Assembly: GCA_965214705.1 (NCBI GenBank)
Contig: OZ243972.1
Span: forward strand, 1,824,001-1,888,000
Length of the DNA stretch: 64,000 nucleotides
From: Alphaproteobacteria bacterium
GTDB taxonomy: Bacteria; Pseudomonadota; Alphaproteobacteria; UBA828
Direction: 5' to 3'
The position numbers and the translations under genes are program-made. A model generated the notes under the pieces. That model saw nothing but the letters and a program-made list of their open reading frames with translations, was not told the origin of the DNA and did no database searches. Below are positions 32,496-47,277 of the stretch, in pieces (within the stretch, counting starts at the first letter, position 1; each line of letters begins with the position of its first letter).

Positions 32496-33626
32496 ATGCC
32501 AATGGCGACGCTCCGCCTCAACGACCGCCGCGTCGAGTCGCTCAAGCCCCGAAAGTCCACCTACGACGTTCGCGACCGCGACCTCAGGGGCTTCGGCGTA
32601 AGGGTGCTGCCCTCGGGCGCCAAGCGGTATTTCGTACATGCTCAGCACGAAGGCCGGCGGATCTGGAAGATCGTCGGCCGCGCCGGGTCCATCGGCGCGG
32701 GCGAGGCCCGCGAACGGGCCAGAACCTTGATCGCCGCGATCCGGAATGGAAACGACGACCAAGCCGCTGCACCGCCGGACACCCCGTTCGAGACGGTGGG
32801 CGACGAAGTCTTCCGGCGCTACGCCCGAAACTGGAAGCCGTCGACCCTCAGGGTCAACCGGAACTACTACCGAAACCAGATTCTCCCCTGGTTCCAGGGA
32901 CGCCCCATCGCCGACATCACCGCCCGCGACGTCAAGCAGTGGTTCACATCCCTTCACGAGACCCCTGTCGCCGCCGACCGCTCGGCTCCCGTTCTCTCGG
33001 TCATCATGCGCCAGGCCGAGGTCTACGGGTATCGGCCGGAAGGGACCAATCCGTGCGTGGGCATCAAACGGTACCGCCGCCAGGGGCGGGAGCGCTTCCT
33101 GACGGCGGCGGAGCTCCGCCGCCTGGGCGCGATGCTGGCCCGCCACGAGGCCGGCCGCCCGCAGGTCGTGGCGATCATTCGGCTGTTGCTGCTCACCGGG
33201 TGCCGCAAGGGCGAGATCATCACGCTGAAGTGGCGCTACTACCGCGAGGGCAACCTGTTCCTGGCGGACAGCAAAGTCGGGCCGCGCTCGGTCTGGCTCT
33301 CGTCCGCCGCGCGCGAGGTTCTCGACAGCGTACCCCGCAGCCCGGTCTGGGTCTTCCCCTCGCCGCAAACTGACGGATGCCTGACCGTGGCCACACTCGA
33401 CCGGGCCTGGCAGCGCATCAGAGCCGAAGCGGACCTGCGCGATGTCCGTCTTCACGATTGCCGGCACACGTACGCCAGCATGGCGCTGGCACAGGGCGAG
33501 ACGGTGCTGACCATCGGCCGGCTGCTCGGACACCGCGATCCAGCAACGACGCTGAAATACACACACATGTCCGACATCATGGTGCACGAAGCCGCCGATA
33601 CCGTCGGCGTCGTCCTCAAGGGCTAG
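32496..33626 (+). CDS. Tyrosine integrase 1 (N-terminal arm-binding domain)
   Basis: RDRDLRGFGVRVLPSGAKRY, TGCRKGE, HDCRH, LGH, catalytic Y. Confidence 0.93.
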   Translation: MPMATLRLNDRRVESLKPRKSTYDVRDRDLRGFGVRVLPSGAKRYFVHAQHEGRRIWKIVGRAGSIGAGEARERARTLIAAIRNGNDDQAAAPPDTPFETVGDEVFRRYARNWKPSTLRVNRNYYRNQILPWFQGRPIADITARDVKQWFTSLHETPVAADRSAPVLSVIMRQAEVYGYRPEGTNPCVGIKRYRRQGRERFLTAAELRRLGAMLARHEAGRPQVVAIIRLLLLTGCRKGEIITLKWRYYREGNLFLADSKVGPRSVWLSSAAREVLDSVPRSPVWVFPSPQTDGCLTVATLDRAWQRIRAEADLRDVRLHDCRHTYASMALAQGETVLTIGRLLGHRDPATTLKYTHMSDIMVHEAADTVGVVLKG

Positions 33627-33628
33627 GC

Positions 33629-34768
33629 ATGGCCGTGAAAAGGCGGCGTCTGACCGACGCCAACATCGCGAAGCTGGCGCCGAAGGCCCGCGAATACACG
33701 GTGTGGGACACGCGGCATGCCGGTCTCGGCGTGCGCATACGTCCGTCGGGGCACCGCAGCTTCGTCTACTGGCGGAAGGGCAAAGGCGGCGCGCGCAGGA
33801 TCACCCTCGGGTCTGCGGCGTTGATGAGCGTCGAGGAGGCGCGCGCCAAGTGCCTCGCCGTCGAGACCGCAGCCCTTGACGGCCAGCCGGAACGCGGAGA
33901 GGTCCCGACGTTCGCGGAGTTCGTCGCCGGGCCGGAGCGAGTCTTCTTCAACCGGGGCAAGCCGTCGACGCGGAAGGAGGCGAACCGGATGATCAACGCG
34001 CGTCTGCTTCCGGCCTTTGGATCGCTGCCGCTGGACCGGATCACCCGCGCCTGCGTGACCCGCTGGTTCGACGAGTTCAGCCGCACCGCGCCGGGCGGAG
34101 CCAATCATGCGTTGAACCTGCTCGGCAAGTTGCTGAACCACGCGATCGATTGCGGACATCTGCGGACGAACCCGGCCCGGAGCGTGAGGCGCAACCCCCG
34201 CCCCAAGCTCACCCGCTTCCTGTCTCGCGAGGAGGTCCGCCGTCTTCATCGTGCGCTCGACCGCCACGCCGTAGCACGGCCATTGTGCGCGCAACAGGCG
34301 GATATCATCCGCCTTCTCTTGCTGACCGGCTGCCGCCGGAGCGAGATCCTGACGCTGCGCTGGCAAGATGTGGAAGAGGACACGCTCAATCTCGGCGATG
34401 CCAAGAGCGGGCCCAGGCGGGTCTTTCTGAATGCGCCGGCCCGCGCGATCCTGAAGCGGCAGCCGCGATCCGCTTGCGCTTACGTCTTTCCTTCCCCGAA
34501 AAATCCCGGACGACCGCGTTCGCACAACCTGGCGCTCTGGCGTTCGGTGCGCAAGGAGGCCGGGATCGAGGATGTGCGCCTGCATGACCTCAGACACACG
34601 TACGCCAGCCACGCCGTGCTGCAAGGCGTCCCGTTGCCCGTCGTCTCACGCCTGCTCGGCCACAGGCGACCAAGCATGACGCTGCGCTATGCCCATGTCG
34701 GCGACCGCGAGACCGAAGCGGCATCGGAACGTATCGGTGCAGCTATCTCGCGAGCATTGGATGGCTGA
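33629..34768 (+). CDS. Tyrosine integrase 2 (paralogue of integrase 1)
   Basis: WDTRHAGLGVRIRPSG, TGCRRSE, HDLRH, LGH, RYAH; starts 2 nt after the integrase 1 stop. Confidence 0.93.
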   Translation: MAVKRRRLTDANIAKLAPKAREYTVWDTRHAGLGVRIRPSGHRSFVYWRKGKGGARRITLGSAALMSVEEARAKCLAVETAALDGQPERGEVPTFAEFVAGPERVFFNRGKPSTRKEANRMINARLLPAFGSLPLDRITRACVTRWFDEFSRTAPGGANHALNLLGKLLNHAIDCGHLRTNPARSVRRNPRPKLTRFLSREEVRRLHRALDRHAVARPLCAQQADIIRLLLLTGCRRSEILTLRWQDVEEDTLNLGDAKSGPRRVFLNAPARAILKRQPRSACAYVFPSPKNPGRPRSHNLALWRSVRKEAGIEDVRLHDLRHTYASHAVLQGVPLPVVSRLLGHRRPSMTLRYAHVGDRETEAASERIGAAISRALDG

Positions 34769-35108: not shown

Positions 35109-35190
35109 GTGTTAAATCACAGAAGTGGGAGTTCGCTTTCGACCCGCCCCCCGATATTATGACACAGGAACCGCTGGAGCCCCGGAACCA

Positions 35191-35824
35191 ATGGAATCGT
35201 GGCAACTGCTTGCAGACATCTGGGATAACGATGTCGCCCGGGCATTCTCTATCGCCATTGTCGTCATCCTTGCCCTGAGTCTACTCGGCTTGCGCTCCCT
35301 TGGCGCGTTAGCCGCCTTCTCTCAACACGGCACCACACTCTGCACAACGCTCGGCGTCCTAGGAACATTTACGGGCATCTTTCTAGGCCTTCTGCAATTC
35401 GATGTCGCCGAAATTGATGCCAGCGTGCCGGAACTCTTGGCGGGCCTCAAGATCGCGTTCTCCACCAGTATCGTGGGGTTAGGTGCGGCGGTGCTCCTCC
35501 GAGCCATCCGATCTTTTGTTCCAACTCGTTCCGAAGGCGCTACAGAGACAACGCCAGAAGCCATTCATCAGACGCTACGAGAAATCAACAACTCGATTAC
35601 CCAAGCTTCTAGAAACCAAGCCGAGGCTCTAACCCAGGTCAGAAGCGCAATTTCAGACGATACTGATAGCAGCCTGGTAACGCAGACACAAAAGCTGCGG
35701 ATAGCTGTTGAAGACGGCAATCTCCAACTGATCGAGCAGTTTAAGCAGTTCGCTGAAAGAATGGCGGAAAACAACTCTCGTGCACTAATCGAAGCACTGG
35801 AACAGGTGATCAGGGACTTTAACG
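35191..35824 (+). pseudogene. ZorA-like (MotA/TolQ/ExbB family) protein truncated by an IS
   Basis: TTLGVLGTFTGIFLGL, GLKIAFSTSIVG, then helical tail MAENNSRALIEALEQVIRDFN cut at the IS66 end. Confidence 0.7.
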
Positions 35825-35844
35825 GTAAGTGGGGCAAATTCTGG

Positions 35845-36515
35845 GAGCGCCAGGCTAACTCTGTCGTGGATAGCCGGTGAAAGTCCGGTGAAGGGAAGGA
35901 CTAACGAACCACCCTTGCCTTGAGCCGTGCGTCGGCCTTCGCGAGGAGGCAGGCGAAGCGTCGGTAGAGGTGCGCGTGGGCAGGACATTGAGCACCGAAA
36001 ATGCCGTCATTCGGAGTGCCGAGGCCATCCAGAAGGTCGAAGGCAACACCGGCCGCCCGCTTTCGTGAGGGCCGGCAGGGCTCCGCGGTGTCCAAGACCC
36101 CAGGCACGCGCGTACGTCCACACAGGGGACCTGGGAGGCCTCTTCATCACCCGTGCCTCAGAGTGCGGGTCGTGACGGGAAGGGTGGATGCCCATAGCCG
36201 TCGATGTACGATGGGGAGGAATCTGACTCGGTCGTAGTACCGTTGAAACGGGGGAACAAAGGGGCGTGACAACCTTGGCGGACTTCGTGGAGGAAAGGAC
36301 CGGGGCCAACGGGAGATCGGGGACCTGAAGCATGTGCCGGGCACAGAACCGGGTAAGCATGTCACAGGAGGGTCTCCGAACACGCCGCCGTGCGAGACGT
36401 CGCAAGAGCGACGAGAGTGCGCCGGACGTCTGACCGGAGGCAGGAGCCGGATGCCTTAGCGGGCACGTCCGGATCTGCGCGGGGGGCGCTGGGTAACCAG
36501 CGTCCCTACCGCGAA
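35845..36515 (+). ncRNA. ORF-less group II intron, copy 1 (671 nt)
   Basis: Starts GAGCG; DV/DVI GAGCCGGATGCCTTAGCGGGCACGTCCGGATCTGCGCGGGGGG...CCCTACCGCGAA; EBS1 CCAGAA (36029-36034) complements upstream TTCTGG. Confidence 0.88.
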
Positions 36516-37186
36516 GAGCGCCAGGCTAACTCTGTCGTGGATAGCCGGTGAAAGTCCGGTGAAGGGAAGGACTAACGAACCACCCTTGCCTTGAGCCGTG
36601 CGTCGGCCTTCGCGAGGAGGCAGGCGAAGCGTCGGTAGAGGTGCGCGTGGGCAGGACATTGAGCACCGAAAATGCCGTCATTCGGAGTGCCGAGGCCATC
36701 CAGAAGGTCGAAGGCAACACCGGCCGCCCGCTTTCGTGAGGGCCGGCAGGGCTCCGCGGTGTCCAAGACCCCAGGCACGCGCGTACGTCCACACAGGGGA
36801 CCTGGGAGGCCTCTTCATCACCCGTGCCTCAGAGTGCGGGTCGTGACGGGAAGGGTGGATGCCCATAGCCGTCGATGTACGATGGGGAGGAATCTGACTC
36901 GGTCGTAGTACCGTTGAAACGGGGGAACAAAGGGGCGTGACAACCTTGGCGGACTTCGTGGAGGAAAGGACCGGGGCCAACGGGAGATCGGGGACCTGAA
37001 GCATGTGCCGGGCACAGAACCGGGTAAGCATGTCACAGGAGGGTCTCCGAACACGCCGCCGTGCGAGACGTCGCAAGAGCGACGAGAGTGCGCCGGACGT
37101 CTGACCGGAGGCAGGAGCCGGATGCCTTAGCGGGCACGTCCGGATCTGCGCGGGGGGCGCTGGGTAACCAGCGTCCCTACCGCGAA
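36516..37186 (+). ncRNA. ORF-less group II intron, copy 2 (head-to-tail duplicate)
   Basis: Apparently identical to copy 1, 671-bp period, no spacer. Confidence 0.88.
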
Positions 37187-37451
37187 GGACGGATTGATGC
37201 GCCGTCTCATGTAGACGCTGGTGTGATGGCGCTTGGGGGTACCCGTTACGCCTGGCGCTGACGGTAGTCCTTGGTGATGGGCATCGGGTCACATTCAGCG
37301 TTTCCTGGCCATCGCAATTCCAGTTCCGGGTGCAGCGACCATGGGCCCGGCCATGTGACGCGACCGCGTTACCGATCCGGATCAGGGGGTTGAGCGAGCA
37401 TTTTTCGCTGGACTTCGCGCGCTTTATGGACAGCGTGCGCGCGGAGGGTCC

Positions 37452-39119
37452 ATGGTCGATTCGCTTCAAACCCAGGCTCAGTTGATCGCGGCTCTGCGGG
37501 CGACGATCGCCGCGCAAGCGGAAACGATCCTTGAGTTGCGTGCCGAGAACGAGCGTCTCAAGGAGACGGTCGCCGTGCACACCGAGACAATCGAGATGCT
37601 CAAGGCCGAGATCCGCCAACTCAAGAGACTGCCCGGCAAGCCGGATATCAAACCGGGCGCGGGCGACGGAGACGGCAAGGGCTCGGGCGGCAAGGGCCTG
37701 GAGGGAGGCCGGCGCTCTTCGGGCGCCTCGAAGAAGCGGCGAGGCCGCAAGCGGGGCCGCGAAGAGGCGAAGCGGGTGGTGCTGTCCGTGCCGGACGCGC
37801 CCGAGGGCTCGGTTCACAAGGATTACCAGGACTATCACGCCCAACTGCTGGAACTCGACGTCTGCAACGTCGTCTTTCAGCGCGAGCGCGTGGTGACGCC
37901 GGACGGGCGCATCGTCGTCGCTGAGCTGCCGGACGGCGTGATCGGCGGCTTCAACCTGGAGCTGCATCGCTTTGTGCTGATGCTCTATCACCAGGGCCAG
38001 AGCACGATCCCGCGCATCACTGCCCTGCTCGATGCGATCGGCCTCGACATCTCGGAGCGCCAGGTGCGGCGCATGCTGACCGGGAACAGGGAGCCGTTCG
38101 TCGGCGAGGCGGCGGAGATCCTGAAGGCGGGTCTTGAAGGGGCGGCCTGGATCTCGGTCGACGACACCGGCGCGCGCCATCAAGGCCGCAACGGCTATTG
38201 CATCTCGATCGGCAACGATTGCTTCGGCTGGTTCGGAACGACGGGGTCGAAGAGCCGGCTGAGCTTCCTCGACACGATGTGCGGCGCCCTCGGCGAGTAC
38301 GTGCTGAACGATGAAGCGTTCCGGTACATGGAGAGCCACGGCATGCCGCGTCGGGCGCTTGACGCGTTGAGGGGGCATGCCGGTGGTCGGTTTGACGGGC
38401 CTGACCTGTGGATGGCGTTCCTCGACGGGCTCGGGATCGACGCCCCCAGGGCCCGGCTCCTCGCCACCGAGGGCGCCCGGCTCGGCTGTCTGTTCGCCCA
38501 TGGCCTGCTGCGCGAGGACAGCGCCATCCTGAGCGACGACGCCGGCCAGTTCGACCTCGGCCTGCACCAGTTCCTGTGCTGGATCCATGCCGAACGGCTC
38601 TACCGCACGTTGCCGGTCTGGAGCGACGCGAGCCGTGCGGCCGTCGATGAGGTGCGCGGCGGCATCTGGCGGACCTACCGGCTGCTCGGCGCCTATTGCC
38701 GCCAGCCAAGCCCCCGCAGACGCGCCGTCGTCGAGCGCAGCTTCGCGCGCACCTTCCGGGCCGGCACCGGCTACCGCCTGCTCGACGAGCAGATCGGGCG
38801 CACCCTCGCAAACCGCGACAAGCTGCTCGCCGTGCTCGACCGCCCCGACGTGCCTGCCCACAACAATCAGCGCGAGGGCGACCTTCGCGTCTGTGTCGTC
38901 CGCCGCAAGGTCTCGGGCGGAACCCGCTCGGATCGAGGCCGTGCCTGCCGCGACGCCTTCCTCACCCACATGAAGACCTGTGCCCGCCATGGTATCTCAT
39001 TCTGGAACTACCTCGGTGACCGCCTGGGCATCCCAGGTGCCGAAAGTGTCCCCTGGCTCCCGGACCTCGCGCGCCAGCGACCGACCGCTGGCCCAGTGCT
39101 CGCCCCGCAGGCCATCTGA
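37452..39119 (+). CDS. IS66-family transposase (single-ORF type)
   Basis: N-terminal coiled coil, SVDDTGARH, LSDDAGQF, LCWIHAER, HNNQREGDLR..V.RRKVSGGTRS. Confidence 0.9.
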   Translation: MVDSLQTQAQLIAALRATIAAQAETILELRAENERLKETVAVHTETIEMLKAEIRQLKRLPGKPDIKPGAGDGDGKGSGGKGLEGGRRSSGASKKRRGRKRGREEAKRVVLSVPDAPEGSVHKDYQDYHAQLLELDVCNVVFQRERVVTPDGRIVVAELPDGVIGGFNLELHRFVLMLYHQGQSTIPRITALLDAIGLDISERQVRRMLTGNREPFVGEAAEILKAGLEGAAWISVDDTGARHQGRNGYCISIGNDCFGWFGTTGSKSRLSFLDTMCGALGEYVLNDEAFRYMESHGMPRRALDALRGHAGGRFDGPDLWMAFLDGLGIDAPRARLLATEGARLGCLFAHGLLREDSAILSDDAGQFDLGLHQFLCWIHAERLYRTLPVWSDASRAAVDEVRGGIWRTYRLLGAYCRQPSPRRRAVVERSFARTFRAGTGYRLLDEQIGRTLANRDKLLAVLDRPDVPAHNNQREGDLRVCVVRRKVSGGTRSDRGRACRDAFLTHMKTCARHGISFWNYLGDRLGIPGAESVPWLPDLARQRPTAGPVLAPQAI

Positions 39120-39646
39120 GATCCTGCCCAAACCGGCCCTCAAGGGCGACTATCACGCCGCTTCATCCCAGGATTTGCCCCTCTTACGCTCCAAGTCTTG
39201 ATTGACTGAACATGCGCCAACAACGATCAAGGTCAACGCAAGCATGGGCCACTTCATTGTGTTCTCCTGATTTTATCTACTGCGGAGGTTGCACTCCAAT
39301 CGGGGGCAGGAGTTCTCGCATCCCCGTTAGCTGTGGACAATGGGCTCGCCGGGGTCCGAGATCAACGCCGCCATCCGCCGCGGCCTCGAAGACGAAGGGG
39401 TGCTGCACGGCCCAGAGCTGGGTGTTGTGCGGCGCGAAAGTGCGCCGAACAACACCTCAGGCTTGTGAGACTTTCTTGCCATCGTCGATCCTCCTCTTTC
39501 CATAACCTAAGGCTGGACCAATCTCATGGTGGAGGATCACTCTGCCTTACATTCGAGACTACTACTAATTTTCAATTCCTGGAGATCTATTTCGGTTTGA
39601 GAGTATACAGAAGTATCGCAACTGTAAATCGTGTAAACGTCCTTTG

Positions 39647-39763: not shown

Positions 39764-39835
39764 TTTGCGGTAGGAACGCCGGTTACCCAGCGCCCCCCGC
39801 ACAGATCCCCGCAGGCCCGTTAGGGCACGAGGCTC

Positions 39836-40021
39836 CTACCTTGAGTGGTTGACGGCAAATCGCTGGTTTGGCCAAGGGTGGCGGATGCTCAGTGGCGGCC
39901 AAAAGGCCCGCGCCAGGGCGCCGACCTTGGCCAGCGTGAAGCGGTCCTTTTGGGATCGGCGCCGCAGCACGCGACGCCATAGCCGCACGAGCCGGAACGT
40001 GAACTGCTTGAGGTACGGGAA
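39836..40021 (-). pseudogene. Group II intron RT/maturase, separated 3' end
   Basis: FPYLKQF...WRRVLRRRSQK...IRHPWPNQRF continues VPTS in frame once 40022-45624 is removed. Confidence 0.85.
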
Positions 40022-40025
40022 GGTT

Positions 40026-40067
40026 AAGGGTTGGGCAGGCTCTCTCTCGAGAGCCTGCCCAACCCTT
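40026..40067. repeat. Perfect 19-bp-stem terminal hairpin
   Basis: AAGGGTTGGGCAGGCTCTC-tctc-GAGAGCCTGCCCAACCCTT. Confidence 0.95.
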
Positions 40068-40185
40068 TTGAACGGAGGCGCGGGCCACGAGAGGCGAAGT
40101 TGAGCGTAAGCGTTACGCAGACCCCATGCCGGAATCTGGGTTGACTACGAGGGGGACTTGTTGAGGAGCGCCGTGAGCGCGCGAG

Positions 40186-41901
40186 TCAATTTGTCTCGGG
40201 CTCGAAGTTCCACGGCAGCAGTTCCTGGATTTTGGACTGCGGGTGACCCTTGGCGATCTTCTCGAGCGTGCTCCGCATCCAGGCGTAAGGCTCGACGCCG
40301 TTCATCTTGCAGGTCTCGATCAGCGATGCGATGCGGGCCCAGGCTTGCGCACCCTCGTCGTTGCCGGCGAAGAGCGCATTCTTGGCGGTGAGCTTCAGCG
40401 GGCGGATTCGGTTTTCCACCAGGTTCGAGTCGATCTCGACGCGGCCGTCGTGCAGGAACTCCAGCAGCCCGTCCCACTGGTTGGCGATATAGGTGAGCTT
40501 CTCGCCGAGACGCGAGCGCGGTGAGACCCGCGAGCGCTGTTCGTCGAGCCAGACACCGAAGGCGTTCACGATCGGCGCCGACTCCTCCCAGCGGATCGCC
40601 TGACGCGTCGCCGGCGGCTCGCCCCGGATCTTCTCCTCGATCGCATAGAGCGTCGCGATCCGCTTCAGGCCAGCCAGCGCGATCGGCGAGGCGCTCGAGT
40701 CGTACACCTCTTTCAGCTTGCGCCTGACGTGCGCCCAGCACAGAGCCCGCGTCACGGGGCCGCCGGGCCGGTCCGGCCGCGCCAGGATGTTGTGGCCCGA
40801 GTAGGCGTCGAGCTGCACCGTCCCCGAAAAGCCCTTCAAGAGCCTGGCGCCATACTTGCCGCCGCGACCGGGCTCATAGCGATAGACAACGCCCGGCGGG
40901 TCGGCGCCGCTCCAGTGGCGCTCGTCGCGCACAAGGGTCCACATGTAGCCCGTCTTCGTCTTGCCCCGGCCCGGGTCGAGAACGCGGATCGTGGTCTCGT
41001 CCAGACCCAGGTGATCCGACTTCTTCAGCTCATCCTTCAGGCAAGCGACCACGGGGCGCAGGTGAAACGACGCCTGCCCCACCCACGTCGCCAGCGTCGC
41101 ACGGTGAACCTCGATCCCCGAGCGCTCGTAAATCTGCGACTGACGGTAGAGCGGGCAATGATCGCCGTACTTCGCGATCAGCACCTGCGCCAGAAGAGCC
41201 TCGGTGGGAAGGCCGCCCTCCACCAGAGAGGCGGGCGCCGACGCCTGCACCACCCCGCCGCCCTTGCACTTGTTGCAGGCGTAGCGGGGGCGCACGGTCT
41301 CGATGACGGTGAACTTCGCCGGCTCATAGTCCAGCCGCTCGCTGCGGTCCTCGCCGATCTTCGTCATCTCGCCGCAGCCGCAGGGGCACATGATCGTGTC
41401 CGGCTCGATCACCTCCTCGCGCCGGTCGACCTGGGGCCCGAAGCGCACCCCGCTGCGCGACCCCCGGGAAGAGCGCCGCCGGCGCTTGCCGCCAGCCCCC
41501 TCGTCCTGCTCCTGGTCATCTGCCTCGGGCCGACCGCCGGCTTCAGCGATCGCCGCCCAAAACTCCTCGAACGTAAGCTGGCGCTCGTCCTCGTTGAGCT
41601 TCTCGGAGCGCGGACCGAACAGCGCCTTCCTGAGCTCCTTGTTGAGATGCTCAAGCCGGCTGATCTGCTCCGCGCTGTGCGCGTTCTCGGCCTCCAGCCG
41701 TGCCGCCCGCGCTTCCGCCGTCTGCCTCGCCGCCTCCGCCGCGCCGCGTGCCTGCTCCGCTTCGCATAGGGCTGCTTCGGTCGCACGGCGCGCCGCGCGC
41801 TCCTCGGCAAGCTCCGCCTGCAGGGTCGCCAGCGCCGCCGAAACCACCGCAGGCGACGGCGAACCGGCGCTGCTGAGGGGTGAGGGCGTGACCTTCGGCA
41901 T
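40186..41901 (-). CDS. tnpC: IS66 transposase TnpC
   Basis: LFGPRSEK, CPCGC, GLDETT, LDAYSG, CWAHVRRK, DSNLVENRIRP, ELLPWN. Confidence 0.95.
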   Translation of the reverse strand: MPKVTPSPLSSAGSPSPAVVSAALATLQAELAEERAARRATEAALCEAEQARGAAEAARQTAEARAARLEAENAHSAEQISRLEHLNKELRKALFGPRSEKLNEDERQLTFEEFWAAIAEAGGRPEADDQEQDEGAGGKRRRRSSRGSRSGVRFGPQVDRREEVIEPDTIMCPCGCGEMTKIGEDRSERLDYEPAKFTVIETVRPRYACNKCKGGGVVQASAPASLVEGGLPTEALLAQVLIAKYGDHCPLYRQSQIYERSGIEVHRATLATWVGQASFHLRPVVACLKDELKKSDHLGLDETTIRVLDPGRGKTKTGYMWTLVRDERHWSGADPPGVVYRYEPGRGGKYGARLLKGFSGTVQLDAYSGHNILARPDRPGGPVTRALCWAHVRRKLKEVYDSSASPIALAGLKRIATLYAIEEKIRGEPPATRQAIRWEESAPIVNAFGVWLDEQRSRVSPRSRLGEKLTYIANQWDGLLEFLHDGRVEIDSNLVENRIRPLKLTAKNALFAGNDEGAQAWARIASLIETCKMNGVEPYAWMRSTLEKIAKGHPQSKIQELLPWNFEPETN

Positions 41902-41994
41902 GGCCGATCCCTTAATCCGATTCGCCAATGCGTGACCAGGGAAAAGTGCAGGCGGGACCTCGACAAAAATCTGCGGACCCGCCTGCGTCTCGCC

Positions 41995-42345
41995 TCACTC
42001 CGCCGCCAGCGGGCGGCGAACCGGGCGGGCCTTCACCCGGCGCCAGTCGAGGCCCTCGAAGAGAGCCTCGAACTGGCCCTTCGTAAGGCGAATCACACCG
42101 TCCTCGATCCGGGGCCAGGCGAAGCGGCCTTGCTCCAGACGCTTGTAGGTCATCACCAGACCGGTCCCGTCCCAGGTGAGAAGCTTGAGCCTGTCCCCGC
42201 GGCGCGAGCGGAAGATCACGATCACCCCGGAATAGATATCGAGGTCCAGCTCCCTCGCCGCCGTCGCCGCAAGCGCGTCGTGGCCGCGACGAAAATCAAC
42301 CGGACGCGTCGCCAACACGATGCGAAGCGAGGGCACCGCGATCAT
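41995..42345 (-). CDS. tnpB: IS66 accessory protein TnpB
   Basis: PVDFRRGHDAL, FRSRRGDRLKLLTWDGTG, KRLEQGRFAWP. Confidence 0.95.
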   Translation of the reverse strand: MIAVPSLRIVLATRPVDFRRGHDALAATAARELDLDIYSGVIVIFRSRRGDRLKLLTWDGTGLVMTYKRLEQGRFAWPRIEDGVIRLTKGQFEALFEGLDWRRVKARPVRRPLAAE

Positions 42346-42944
42346 GACGACGCACGACCCAGGCCCGAGGCCACAGCCACGATCCGATCGACCGCGCTCT
42401 CCACCGGAAGGCGAACGACGACGCCCAGCGCCTCAATCGCGACCGTCCGCTCGGACGCAGACCCGTCAACTACAACCGGAATATAGGGGGGCGAAGACCC
42501 GGCTCCCTGCCGATCGCCACCAGCGTCACTCGCCGCCTGGCGACGCCAGGTGCGCAGCGTCTTCTCGCTGATGCCGTGACGGCGGGCAACTGCCGATATC
42601 GATGCATCCGGGCGCTCGCTCTCCGCAACAATCCGCGCCTTCACATCAGCCGGCCAAGGCCGGCCACGCCGCTTCCCGGAAGCCGCTGACCGACTGCGCC
42701 ACTGACGAAGAGTTTGTGCGCTGATGCCGTGGCGAGCCGCGACCTCCTTCTGCACAACTCCCGGCCTGTCGCTCTCCGCGACGATCCGTGCCTTCTCCTC
42801 GGCGGACCATGACCGCCGAGTGTGATCAGCCGGAACAGTTGCCGTAGATGGGGCTGCGGCAGATGGGGCGGCCTCTTCAGGCGCTCGCGCCTCGACCGAG
42901 TGACCGCCGAACTCGTGGCCACGCAGAAAATCCAAATCCTTCAT
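42342..42944 (-). CDS. tnpA: IS66 TnpA with two HTH domains
   Basis: WSAEEKARIVAES..VAARHGIS..LRQWR and WPADVKARIVAES..VARRHGIS..LRTWR. Confidence 0.85.
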   Translation of the reverse strand: MKDLDFLRGHEFGGHSVEARAPEEAAPSAAAPSTATVPADHTRRSWSAEEKARIVAESDRPGVVQKEVAARHGISAQTLRQWRSRSAASGKRRGRPWPADVKARIVAESERPDASISAVARRHGISEKTLRTWRRQAASDAGGDRQGAGSSPPYIPVVVDGSASERTVAIEALGVVVRLPVESAVDRIVAVASGLGRASS

Positions 42945-43266
42945 CGCGATGCCTCCTCCAAGGCTCCTTGCCAAGGCCAAGAGTCAGCCGCGAAATCAGA
43001 TGCGTTGGAAGTATGGGGCCTCGATACCGCTTACAGTTGAGCTATGTGGAAAGTGCGCTGATGTCAGCGTCAGGCGGCATCCACCGGCAGCAGAGTTGCG
43101 CATGAGATCGACGCTCGCGCCGGCCTTTCGGCAGGCATGCGGGCGCACGCTGCGAGGACTGAGCGGGGTGTGAGCCGAGGGCTGTCAGCCCGGCCCAAGC
43201 GGAGACAGGTTCGGTCGTGCGTCGGCGCTTTGGCGCCGTTGCGCGGGGCCGAAGCGAGCGGGCGTC

Positions 43267-44508
43267 TCACGGTTTCCCCCTGTGGGTCGGCGGCACGGCC
43301 GGCGGACCGCGCGTCGAGCGGGGCTCATGGCGGCGGCGGATTTCGCGGACGAGGCGCATGACGCCGCCGCAGTGGGGGCAGGCCACGGGCGCGGTGTCGA
43401 TCACGGTCTCTTCGTCGGGCTCGGCCCGAGCGCCGCCCACGCTTTCCTCGGGGACGGCGCAGCCGAGGGCGCCGAGAGTCTGGCGTGCTCTCTCCAGCGT
43501 GCTGGCGCGGCAGCCGTTGGCGAGAATGCCGAAGTAGCGGATGCGGTGCATGCCGTCCGGCAGGACGTGCATCAGGAAGCGGCGGATGAACTCGTCTGCG
43601 CTCACGGTGGCGATGCCGTAGCGCGGCTTTCTCTGCCCCGGCGCCTTGGGCTTGCGGTGGCGGAAGGAGACCGTCTCGCCGTCGAAGGAGACGATGCGGC
43701 TGTCGGAGATGGCGATCCTGTGCGTGTAGTGCGAGAGGTACCGGAAGACCTGCTCAGGCCCGCGGAAGGGCCGCTTGGCGTAGACCACCCAGTCCCTGGC
43801 CCGGGCGGCGGCAAGCGTGGCGTGGAACTCGCCGGGATTGGCGAGGTGGGCGAGGGTGCCGTGGAACTCCAGGTCCCCCCGGCCGTGGGCGCGGGCGAGC
43901 TCCTTGAGGAAGAGGCGGCGGAACAGGCTGCCGAGGACCTTGACGGGGGCGAGGAAGGTGGTGCTCCCCGTCTTCCACTCGCCGCTGTCTACGTCGAAGC
44001 CCGCGTTGGGCACGACCACGTGCAGGTGCGGGTGGAAGCGGAGCTTCTGATCCCAGGTATGGAGGACCGCGGTGCCGCCGATGCGCATGCCGCCGTGGCG
44101 GGGATCGGCGGCGATGGTGCGCAGGGTCTCGGCGACGGCCCGGAAGAGGATGTCGAACACCACCCTGCGGTTGCAGAAGGCAATGGCGGCAACCTCCTTG
44201 GGCAGGGTGAAGACCACATGGAAGTAGGGCACCGGCAGGATGTCCCCGGCGCGCTCCTCGCTCCAGAGGTTGGCGGCGAGACCCTGGCAGGTGGGGCAGT
44301 GGCGGTTGCGGCAGGAGTTGAAGAGCGGATGCTCGCGCCCGCAGCCCTCGCAGGCGTACATGTGGCCGCCGAGCACGGCGGTGCGGCACGCCTCGATGGC
44401 GCCCATGACCTTGAGCCGGGCGGCGTCGATGCGCCCTTTGTGGCGCTCACGGAAAGCGGCGCCGGCGCGGCGGAGGATCTCCGCCACGCCCGCGCGTTCG
44501 GCCTCCAC
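43267..44508 (-). CDS. IS91-like (Y2 HUH) transposase with zinc-binding domain
   Basis: CRT..LGGH, SCRNRHCPTCQ, YFHVVFTLP, LHTW..HPHLH, YLSHYTHR, HVLP.G..RIRYFG. Confidence 0.93.
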   Translation of the reverse strand: MEAERAGVAEILRRAGAAFRERHKGRIDAARLKVMGAIEACRTAVLGGHMYACEGCGREHPLFNSCRNRHCPTCQGLAANLWSEERAGDILPVPYFHVVFTLPKEVAAIAFCNRRVVFDILFRAVAETLRTIAADPRHGGMRIGGTAVLHTWDQKLRFHPHLHVVVPNAGFDVDSGEWKTGSTTFLAPVKVLGSLFRRLFLKELARAHGRGDLEFHGTLAHLANPGEFHATLAAARARDWVVYAKRPFRGPEQVFRYLSHYTHRIAISDSRIVSFDGETVSFRHRKPKAPGQRKPRYGIATVSADEFIRRFLMHVLPDGMHRIRYFGILANGCRASTLERARQTLGALGCAVPEESVGGARAEPDEETVIDTAPVACPHCGGVMRLVREIRRRHEPRSTRGPPAVPPTHRGKP

Positions 44509-44514
44509 GCGCCG

Positions 44515-45393
44515 TCAGTTGCGCAACGCTGCGAAGCCTGAGATCGGGTGGTCGAGGCCCTCGAACATCTTGCCGGTGACGCGGGCGTAGTGACGGGTCG
44601 TGTTCGCGCTTCGATGGCCGAGCATGTCCCGGATCACCTCGATATCGCCGCCGCGCTCGAGGAGATGGGTCGCCGCCGAATGGCGCAGGCAATGGAAGGT
44701 GTAGCTGCGGTCGAGCTCGGCAATGTCGCGCGCCCTCCTGAAGGCGGCCTGCAAGGTCTCCGTTGCGATGGGCCTGTCGAGCGAGACGCCGTAGAAGAGC
44801 CAGCTCGTCGGACGCGGCCAGATGTTCCTGTAGTAGGCGCGCAAGTAGTGGATGACGCTGTCCGGCAACGGTGCCATTCTCTCGGTGCCGCCTTTGCCGG
44901 AGGGGATGTGTAGCAGCTTCTTCTCCGACAGGATGTCGCCGACCTTGATGGCCAAGGTCTCGGAGATGCGGAGCCCGCCGCCATAGCCGGTGACAATGGC
45001 AGCACGGTGGCGGAGGTCGGGCGTCGCAAGGATGAGGTGCTCGACCTCCTGCTCCGACATGTAGCGCGGCAGCTTGCCGGGCTTCTTGCGGGAGCGCAGG
45101 CCGGCGACGTGGTCAGGCCAGCCGAGTGTGTCGATGTAGAGGAAGTTCAGCGCGGCGAAGGAGACGTTGGTCGTGCCCGGACTGAGCCCCTTGTCGATCC
45201 GCCCCAGGTACCACTGGCGCACCTGCTCGGCGTCGAGCTCGTCCGGCGAGGCGTCGTAGTACCTGGCCAGGTTCTTGATCTCGCAGATGTAGGCCTTGGA
45301 CGTGCTCGCGGCCAGATTGGCGATGCGGAGCTGCTCCTCCATGCGCTGGCGAAGAGGGGTGACGGTGTTCGTGTCGCACGCGGTCCCGGTCAT
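44515..45393 (-). CDS. Tyrosine recombinase (Xer/IntI-like) paired with the IS91-like transposase
   Basis: PLRQRM, GLRISE, GKGGTER, HCLRHSAATHLLE, LGH, TTRHY. Confidence 0.93.
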   Translation of the reverse strand: MTGTACDTNTVTPLRQRMEEQLRIANLAASTSKAYICEIKNLARYYDASPDELDAEQVRQWYLGRIDKGLSPGTTNVSFAALNFLYIDTLGWPDHVAGLRSRKKPGKLPRYMSEQEVEHLILATPDLRHRAAIVTGYGGGLRISETLAIKVGDILSEKKLLHIPSGKGGTERMAPLPDSVIHYLRAYYRNIWPRPTSWLFYGVSLDRPIATETLQAAFRRARDIAELDRSYTFHCLRHSAATHLLERGGDIEVIRDMLGHRSANTTRHYARVTGKMFEGLDHPISGFAALRN

Positions 45394-45624
45394 TATCGAT
45401 CTCCCTGGATCGCGACGGCGCGCCGCCGGACCGATCCGGCGACGGTCCGTCGCAGGGGTCGATGCTAACCACTGGTGATCGGGAGGCTGCTGGGGATCCG
45501 CCACTCGACGGGCGGAGCGCCACTGACGCAACCGGGAAGCGAACGCACAGGGCAAACGGCACCCGCGACGCCTCGGAAATGAATGAACTCTACGCCGCTA
45601 ACTCCGCGTAGCGGCTTCGTTCAA

Positions 45625-46917
45625 GCTGGTTGGGACGGCATAGTATCGAAGCCATCCGTCCACGACCCTCCCAAGCCATTTTGCAACCTCGTACCGGTCA
45701 TGGTGCATCCTTCGGCGCAGTTCGGCCTTGATGCGCTTGAGGGTTCGGTTGACCCGGCTTCGCATCGGTTTCCGGCCCAGACCGGGACGTCCGGTCCTCG
45801 TGGTCCGGCAGTAATGCGTGAACCCGAGGAAGTCGAACGTTTCGGGACGCCGCTCGCCTCGCGCCCGCCGGCGTGCGATCGCCCGCTGGCCAAACTCGAT
45901 GAGCCGCGTCTTGTCCGGGTGGAGGTCGAGCGAGAACAAAGCCAGCCTCGCCTTCAAGTCGCGCAGGAACCGTTCCGCGTCGCTCTTGTGCTCGAAACCG
46001 ACCACAAAATCATCGGCGTAACGCACGATGATCGTGTCGCCGCAGGCCGTCCGCGAACGCCATTTCTGGAACCACAGGTCGAGCACATAGTGGAGGTAGA
46101 CGTTCGCGAGAATCGGCGAAGCCACCGCCCCTTGCGGGGTGCCCACCAGCGTGTCTGACCATGCGCCCTCTTCGATGACGCCCGCGTTGAGCCACTTGGC
46201 GATCAGCCGGAGTGCCCGCCGATCCCCGATGCGATGGCCCAAGAACCGGAGCGTCCAGTTCCTGTCCAGGTTATCGAAGAACCCACGGATGTCGGCGTCA
46301 ACGATCCAGTTGACCCGGCGTCGGTCGATCCCGTACGCCAGAGCATCGAGCGCGTCGTGCGCCCCACGCCCCGGACGGAACCCATAGCTGAACCCGAGGA
46401 AGGCCGGCTCGTAAATTGGCGTCAGGATAATCTCCGTCACCGCCTTCTGGACGATCTTGTCCTCTAGCGCGGCGACGCCGAGCGGTCGTGTCCCGCCGTC
46501 TGGCTTGGGTATCTCTACCCGCCGGACCGGCGGCGCCCGATACGCTCCGGTCTGTACGCGACGGTGAAGGTCGAGCAGCCGCTCTTCCAGCCCCTCCGCG
46601 TACTGAGCCCATGTCATGCCGTCTACCCCCGCTGCGGCGTCCCGCTTCAGCGCGTGGAAGGCCCAGCGCAGCGCGTCCGGCGTGACATGATGCAAGAGCG
46701 CCGTCAGCTTCTCCCGCGGCTTCCTCGTTGCAGTTTGCCGTATCCGCTCGGCGGCCTGGGACACGCTTTCCCGGCTCTGCGTCCGGCGCGTGCTTTCGCG
46801 TCGCGGATTCCTCTCGGTTCCGGCCCTTCGCTTCATCGGCTCCGCCGGACCTCGCGGCCCCTTGTTCGCCGACTTCATCGCTACTATGGCCGAATCAGAT
46901 TGCTTCGACTCGTACAT
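45625..46917 (-). pseudogene. ltrA: Group II intron reverse transcriptase/maturase, 5' part
   Basis: AAGVDG, IPKPDGGTRPLG, SYGFRPGR, GTPQG, RYADD, FDFLGF; cut after VPTS; no endonuclease domain. Confidence 0.92.
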
Positions 46918-47277
46918 CTTCGATTCGGATATCCTCCTTTCTTCCGCGGCCCCGGTACGACCACCGGGGCAAGTCGAAGCCCTCCCGAGTCCCGGCACAG
47001 GGGTGTACGTGCGTCCATGGATTCCTCAGACAACGCGGAGCCCCGCAGTGCCTCACCAGAGCGGTCCTGCAGGTGTCGCCTTCGGCCGATGAGAAAACCT
47101 CGGCACTCCGGACCATAACATTTTCGATGCTCAATCATCCCGGCCACACGCGCCGCTACCGACGCTTCGACCGCACCCTCACGGATGCCGCCGCACGGCT
47201 CGCGGTGGAAGTAGTGGTTAGCCTTTCCTTCCCGTCGGACTCTCACCGACTCCCCTGCGCCAGTTAGCTCGGCGCTC

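Follow-up and report, generated by a model that had tools for sequence, protein, structure and literature searches.

Introduction

Group II introns that have no open reading frame (ORF) are short derivatives in which the ribozyme is retained, and the protein of a related intron is needed for their movement. Such introns, and the homing of introns into other introns, were reportedly described from prokaryotes by Dai and Zimmerly in 2003 and by Simon et al. in 2008. Their likeness to the locus described here lies in the short, ribozyme-keeping unit and in a genome rich in nested introns.

Retargeted RmInt1 is described as inserting in tandem through an EBS3 = C, its pairing partner being the G with which the resident intron begins (PMC4075523). 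The intron dimer that we report shares with RmInt1, as far as the published account carries the comparison, a protein without an endonuclease domain, EBS3 = C, and exact head-to-tail insertion at an occupied site (PMC4075523). The RmInt1 tandem, as presented there, was engineered and over-expressed from a plasmid, whereas ours is a natural chromosomal pair of a different, ORF-less intron, with a two-step order that we infer (PMC4075523). In the data given for a second system, EcKTE56.groEL, tandems form through a U-G wobble and make up 22.4% of the integrants of the ORF-deleted intron versus 4.2% of those of the full-length form (PMC12584367). There too the second copy is said to enter at the junction between the 5' exon and the first copy, and it does so more often when the intron is ORF-deleted and the RT is supplied in trans; the differences, on the same account, are that EcKTE56.groEL is a IIB1 intron at the groEL stop codon, with EBS3 = U, followed in a laboratory assay, whereas here the pair is C-G and the site is the end of an IS (PMC12584367).

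A third system resembles ours in its choice of target. RmInt2 of Sinorhizobium meliloti GR4, as portrayed in PMC4615759, homes into the inverted repeats of ISRm17, at two sites per IS and on opposite strands; it tolerates only 4 paired EBS2/IBS2 bases, and a related IEP can mobilise its ORF-deleted form. Inverted repeats of an IS as homing sites, a 4-bp EBS2/IBS2 pairing, and an ORF-deleted form open to mobilisation are all points of likeness with our intron; RmInt2 differs in that it encodes its own protein (class D), whereas our intron is ORF-less (PMC4615759). Of natural genomic head-to-tail arrays of group II introns in bacteria we found no report, in a search that covered subscription journals thinly and that counts as weak evidence.

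Here we analyze such an array in an alphaproteobacterial genome (GenBank assembly GCA_965214705.1). The window, by which we mean the whole stretch of 64,000 nucleotides that was analyzed, comes from contig OZ243972.1; positions are those of the window unless another contig is named, and the intron units, the IS that carries them and the genes described upstream of it lie on the plus strand.

Results

An exact head-to-tail intron dimer

Two units of 671 nt, copy 1 at 35845..36515 and copy 2 at 36516..37186, are identical (0 differences) and abut directly, 3' end to 5' end, with no extra bases at the joint between 36515 and 36516. This is the exact joining of two 671-nt copies that the original prediction, made from the sequence alone, had claimed. 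The repeat cannot be extended leftward; rightward it extends by 1 base, a G, which leaves the unit boundary ambiguous by that one G.

Both units are matched over their full length by the Rfam model RF02005 (group-II-D1D4-6; model positions 1-225 of 225) at 168.1 bits, against a gathering score of 49, and the covariance model in this way supports the proposed intron identity for each copy. Domains V and VI (36442..36515 in copy 1; 37113-37186 in copy 2) are matched in each unit by RF00029 at 32.8 bits, under the gathering score of 40 (E 3.4e-4), and other introns in the genome have 3' ends that share 81-92% identity with this segment. The branch A is likely the base at 36508, 7 nt from the 3' end of copy 1.

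The usual 5' end of a group II intron is GUGYG. The 671-nt unit begins GAGCG (intron start GAGCGC) and falls outside this consensus; among its relatives we observe 5' ends reading GUGCG, GUGUG, GAGCG or GAAUG. Since the second intron base varies within the lineage, the usual 5' consensus is not kept in it, and the GAGCG start is a lineage variant at position 2. The unit belongs to a IIB-like lineage, the proteins of which have no endonuclease domain.

The insertion sequence that carries the dimer

The dimer lies inside an IS66-like insertion sequence that occupies 35825-39187 and measures 2,021 bp without the introns. The tip of its left terminal repeat, GTAAGTGGGGCAAATTCTGG (35825..35844), is the 5' exon of the intron, and the remaining IS body (37187..39187) contains the transposase (37452-39119) and the right terminal repeat (39168-39187), the latter being an empty intron site. 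The transposase matches Pfam DDE_Tnp_IS66 at 43.4 bits (cut-off 23.1) over residues 371-496 only, which is its C-terminal part, and scores 85 bits with the NCBIfam IS66 model (NF033517), under the cut-off of 180.

Members of the IS66 family are characterized by an 8-bp target duplication, by GTAAG termini, and by the accessory genes tnpA/tnpB upstream of the transposase. All ends of the present IS begin GTAAG, and 8-bp target duplications (CAACTACT, TTGCAATC and CATCTCTC) flank three of its four full copies in the genome. The copy in the window is flanked by CTTTAACG (35817-35824) and GCTCCAAG (39188-39195), which form no target duplication, and this suggests a later rearrangement or an adjacent deletion. 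The tnpA/tnpB trait is absent from the 2,021-bp element, which has one long ORF only and may belong to a single-ORF IS66 subgroup. The window copy, 95% identical to the others, is also the sole one to retain the first 30 bases inside the left repeat.

A host ORF (35125..35824) is interrupted by the IS, and its open frame continues to 35880, inside the intron; the sole Pfam match of this frame (35125..35880), to ALIX_LYPXL_bnd, is weak and below the cut-off. Just upstream of the disrupted gene stands a tyrosine integrase (Phage_integrase, Arm-DNA-bind_3; 33377-34768), so that the region resembles an island of mobile DNA. Cumulative GC skew is irregular across the three contigs of the assembly.

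Occupied and empty sites in the genome

The genome (G000; 3 contigs, 7.92 Mb, no N) contains five exact copies of the 671-nt unit at four loci, namely the window dimer and three single copies. Three of the four loci are ends of one insertion sequence, and the dimer is found at one locus alone. This IS is present in four full copies and one truncated copy, and a pattern scan with its 20-bp end returned 11 hits, 9 of which are IS ends. Six of these nine ends are occupied, by the intron itself or by a 290-nt relic, and the intron reads inward from the IS tip throughout, a distribution that agrees with the earlier claim that it homes to transposon ends. All four left ends are occupied, by the dimer in the window and by a 290-nt 5' relic, 94-96% identical, in the other three; two of the five right ends are occupied, each by a full single copy. 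The three empty right ends read GTAAGAGGGGCAAATCCTGG directly followed by GATGAAGCGG. From these empty sites the intron is seen to enter, to within one G, directly behind base 20 of the terminal repeat, its inner edge, which upholds the placement of the insertion 20 bp into the left IR. The outer junctions of the dimer are the same as those at single-copy sites.

Whether the other copies also lie in IS66 IRs had been posed as a check, and the answer is divided: two single copies do lie in IS ends, and one does not. This last copy (C3:1789188-1789858) is in a gene that reads ...LHTWGQNL up to the insertion point, its target being GGCAGAATCTGG followed by G. We take LHTWGQNL to be an IS91-type transposase motif, and the gene to be IS91-like.

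The 290-nt relics are found at C1:424197-424485, 1501634-1501922 and 2638438-2638726. The three IS copies that bear them have a common deletion end point and a 12-nt filler, together with differing 8-bp target duplications, an indication that the IS moved while its left end contained intron sequence. It has thus probably remained able to move with intron sequence in its end, and the two elements would spread together.

Target recognition by EBS1, EBS2 and EBS3

We aligned eleven related intron types with their exons, drawn from this genome and from G004, G008, G013, G017, G039 and G047. EBS1, CCAGAA, lies at 36029..36034 in copy 1 and at 36700-36705 in copy 2, and pairs 6/6 with the IBS1 TTCTGG (35839-35844). 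Across the alignment the EBS1 column pairs 6/6 with exon positions -6..-1 in 10 of the 11 types, and in the eleventh after a 1-nt shift. The assignment of CCAGAA as EBS1, already made in the original prediction, is secured by its position, which in the Rfam model is the loop of the EBS1 hairpin, by the 6/6 pairing, and by this covariation in the 11 types. The window site is the only one in the genome with 6/6 EBS1 pairs; the other sites have 5/6.

The basal Id stem contains a single unpaired base within the motif GUC[N]AA, which is C36093 in copy 1 and C36764 in copy 2. In 11 of 11 intron types the unpaired base of GUC[N]RA forms a Watson-Crick pair with position +1 of the 3' exon, with each of the four bases represented (A-U twice, G-C four times, U-A four times, C-G once); we take it to be EBS3. 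A G stands at +1 in all seven sites of the 671-nt intron, four of them occupied and three empty, and the three distinct natural 3' exons, GGACGG, GATGAA and GACAGC, share little beyond this G. The related intron of G004, whose EBS3 is a U, sits at +1 = A or C, the C being found in 2 of 5 site types; constraint on the 3' exon is accordingly weak. Variants with EBS3 = C in G321 occupy sites with +1 = T.

For EBS2, a fixed-register scan gave no consistent column across the 11 types, and a free-register scan supported a 13-nt internal loop, adjacent to the EBS1 hairpin on its 5' side, as EBS2 in the relatives, in that it makes 7-bp matches to exon positions -15..-8 in 4 of the 11 types. The candidate EBS2 of our intron, UGCC (36002..36005), lies in this loop and could pair with GGCA of the exon (35833-35836), the likely IBS2 core, over 4 bp only. 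An alternative EBS2 had been proposed at 35915-35920, TTGCCT. On paper it can indeed pair with GGGCAA, and in this intron alone the contiguous pairing reaches 8 bp, of which 3 are G-U, but it is part of a helix in the Rfam model, and its equivalents mismatch the exons of the relatives; we regard it as the less likely EBS2. The predicted target is GGCA-N2-TTCTGG/G, the slash marking the insertion point, where the 20-bp terminal repeats meet the interior of the IS.

Loss of the reverse transcriptase ORF

Stops are present in all three frames of the 671-nt unit, and its domain IV has no RT ORF; relatives measure 1,911 nt, and about 1,300 nt of ORF are missing. A remnant of the IEP N-terminus, MYDGEESDSVVVPLKRGNKG, is encoded in domain IV at 36204..36263 (copy 2 equivalent 36875-36934); by tblastn it is 50% identical over 20 aa to the start of a related intron protein (E 2.6e-4). 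An RT remnant had been proposed before in the form of CRAQNRVSMSQ; this peptide is present in one frame, but the remnant with statistical support is MYDGEESDSVVVPLKRGNKG. The unit is, to judge by these matches, an ORF-less derivative that retains the start of domain IV with ~20 recognisable codons of the IEP, and its description as non-autonomous is sound, the RT ORF being absent and only about 20 codons of the IEP start being left. According to PMC12584367, the start of domain IV houses the protein-binding site in those introns that have been studied. Because five identical copies exist at four loci, an RT/maturase would be needed in trans.

A close full-length parent of the unit was not found in this genome, where the best whole-length relative is 68% identical. 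Full-length introns reach at most 68% identity to the unit over its 5' 524 nt, and in the last 83 nt one full-length type shares 92% with it. The genome has one intact related IEP, in the intron at C2:590966-592876; it scores 341 bits with TIGR04416 (cut-off 300), and its only Pfam domain is RVT_1, the nuclease domain being absent. Class D IEPs are described as carrying the C-terminal motif LX3AX3PXLF[V/A]HW (PMC4615759), and the IEPs related to our intron end in ...FWPPLSIRHPW (LARAFWPPLSIRHPW) or AAAFWPPLQILHPW, which by eye is similar to the class D motif without matching it.

A related full-length intron lies in the window itself (39764..47277, minus strand). This 1,911-nt intron shares 68% identity with the 671-nt unit and 99.9% with the intact copy at C2:590966-592876. 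A 5.6-kb insert (40023-45622) interrupts it at nt 1655 and leaves its RT ORF (45598-46998) without the C-terminus. The insert contains a canonical IS66 transposase (40186-41928), an HTH transposase ORF (42342-42980), an IS91-type Y2 transposase (43267-44508) and a tyrosine recombinase (44515-45555). Matches to 3,618 records were obtained in the plasmid collection, with no place covering 80% of the query; the 25 matches listed of these 3,618 are 65-72% identical and provide no close relative or host clue.

Nested introns are found elsewhere in this genome. At C2:398565-402499 (L119), a 2,024-nt insert encoding a 436-aa protein (RVT_1 + GIIM) is located at nt 395/396 of a 1,911-nt intron; an intron within an intron is likewise seen at C3:92354-96288 and in other introns in C1 and C3. 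Rfam at gathering level gave no RNA model for the inner 2,024-nt element, whose ORF is also present inside two other intron types.

Exact tandems in other genomes

When the dimer junction was used as query, joint-spanning matches were obtained in 2 of 61 genomes of relatives and in 2 of 44 genomes of the family, G000 and G004 in both searches, and in 3 of 401 genomes of a class sample with at most 2 candidates scored in each (G000, G238 and G321). Related introns form exact natural tandems in three further genomes, which are G004, G238 and G321.

In G004, a 1,911-nt full-length intron forms a dimer inside what looks, from its sequence, like an IS6-type transposase gene, and the EBS3 of this intron is a U, able to wobble with G. 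The two units of the dimer differ at nt 1334 (C/T), a position at which 14 other full-length copies have T in 5 cases and C in 9. That the units carry different circulating alleles argues against the copying of a single RNA, and the G004 dimer likely derives from two different donors, which fits better than the double copying of one RNA.

G238 contains a 1,916-nt intron in four exact dimers (L105, L109-L111), two of them in identical flanks. Their EBS3 is a G, which pairs with the C of the exon and cannot pair with the first G of the neighboring intron. In G321, on C1 (L107, L108, L112-L118), another group II intron contains, between its domains V and VI, a 730-nt ORF-less intron. This genome has at least 40 scored matches, many of them in exact dimers or trimers that mix 1,918-nt and 730-nt units; among those listed, two matches abut base to base at 14 places, and both dimers and trimers were confirmed directly. 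At one and the same +1 T site the introns of G321 have either A or C as EBS3, in single and tandem copies alike; in the dimer at L107:3986-5445 the base is an A, which cannot pair with G.

Among eight arrays read for this base, the EBS3 of the upstream unit or units is C or U in three (the window, G321 L113 and G321 L114) and G or A in five (the four G238 dimers and G321 L112), and as arrays within a genome may be mutual copies of one another these are not independent counts; G004 (EBS3 U), G321 L107:7364-8823 and G321 L108 stand outside this tally. Exact tandems appear to recur in nature in this intron lineage. The existence of tandems despite EBS3 = G or A means that the EBS3-G pair is not required in the lineage, and that another route could make all the arrays.

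Discussion

We conclude that the dimer is real and that it represents a natural example of a known mechanism. Our preferred explanation, which we consider probable, is that the dimer arose by two successive events of ordinary retrohoming, a route for which retargeted RmInt1 (PMC4075523) and EcKTE56.groEL (PMC12584367) give laboratory precedent. An RT/maturase encoded elsewhere in the genome would mobilise the 671-nt intron. The first insertion would leave the 5' exon unchanged, and the base after the insertion point would again be a G, now the first base of the intron itself; IBS2, IBS1 and IBS3 would all persist at the 5' exon/intron junction of the resident copy. The first G of the resident intron would pair with EBS3 = C of the newcomer, the second intron RNA would reverse-splice at this junction, upstream of the resident, and DNA copying of the reverse-spliced RNA would produce the exact 3'-to-5' joint. 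Copy 1 would then be the later arrival, and G36516, the first base of copy 2, would stand in for its exon +1 (IBS3).

The locus shows the marks of tandem integration, namely an exact joint, intact IBS1 and IBS2 upstream, and an EBS3 = C able to pair with G. From the observed anatomy, target rule, and EBS1 and EBS3 pairings, we infer the order of events and the use of the junction as target. The original prediction had held that ordinary retrohoming cannot explain the dimer, and had pointed to the sequence before copy 2, CGCGAA, which EBS1 cannot pair. CGCGAA does precede copy 2. The argument nevertheless fails, because only the bases before copy 2 were weighed and the other order of events was missed: a newcomer can enter before the resident, where IBS2 and IBS1 are intact and +1 is a G. 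Both units, like all five copies in the genome, are identical, so no trace of two separate events is left here.

A single integration, in which the RT, having reached the 5' end of the inserted intron RNA, passes to the 3' end of another or runs round an RNA circle, is the kind of origin put forward in the original prediction; the dimer can be accounted for without it, and it is in our estimate unlikely. We keep some weight on it because the EBS3-G pair is not a general requirement: the tandems of G238 and the dimer at G321 L107:3986-5445, with an EBS3 unable to pair with G, are explained by an EBS3-independent route of this kind. Circles, template switching and precursor-RNA reverse splicing are all discussed as sources of head-to-tail junctions in the account of B.c.I4 (PMC1865049). 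The joint of our dimer contains no extra bases, and every array examined has an exact exon junction upstream, as expected of reverse splicing and not of the joining of free cDNA ends; both observations speak against a template jump or read-around. An RNA circle, furthermore, has no free 3' OH for reverse splicing, which we count against a circle-based origin. The different alleles of the G004 units exclude read-around on one RNA in that genome, and a jump to a second RNA is still compatible with them.

Reverse splicing into DNA could also be replaced by reverse splicing into an unspliced transcript at the 5' exon/intron junction, after which the two-intron RNA would be copied and recombined into the locus. 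Such a route would use the same pairings as two successive retrohoming events, and PMC1865049 names reverse splicing into precursor RNA among the origins of head-to-tail tandems. It needs an added step of cDNA recombination, however, for which nothing in the sequence calls, and laboratory tandems are attributed to DNA targets; we regard it as very unlikely.

We find it similarly hard to believe that the dimer is an artefact of assembly and that the window site really has one copy. The public reads, available as short contigs from four runs, include among those listed none that bridges 36515/36516, which is the one point in favor of this view. The left flank into the intron (35500-35870) is covered with 0 differences in contigs of two runs (X9 and X11), the assembly of 3 contigs has no N, and the ends of the duplication coincide exactly with the ends of the intron. 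The same kind of exact tandem is present, moreover, in the assemblies of other species, G004, G238 (4 dimers) and G321. Run X9 also includes one contig with an empty left-end site (joint 35844 to 37187), the shorter side of which is 21 letters, and the 290-nt relic form is present in run X11. That intron mobility played no part, and that unequal exchange or replication slippage duplicated the DNA in tandem, is scarcely credible: nothing specific favors it beyond the one base (G) of microhomology at the ends, the boundaries are intron ends here and in every other array examined, and G004 has 0 bases of homology at the ends.

Two successive retrohoming events would explain the window dimer, and a wider proposal may be made for the lineage, which we put forward tentatively and consider rather doubtful. 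Every inserted copy may stay a target, so that arrays build up, among them arrays of introns with an EBS3 unable to pair with the G of the neighboring unit, with recognition of the 3' exon abandoned or with concatenation that is independent of EBS3. If this were true, the intron would home onto itself, or template jumping between intron RNAs would concatenate the copies, and such arrays could raise the dosage of RT-less parasites.

Our findings have implications for the annotation of bacterial genomes, where exact intron dimers are not to be dismissed as assembly errors. The locus also provides a second natural case of an intron that homes to the terminal repeats of an IS. Tandem insertion of group II introns has hitherto been reported as a side product of over-expression assays. 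The window locus, together with the arrays in three other genomes, indicates that tandem insertion also takes place in natural chromosomes, and with ORF-less and full-length introns alike.
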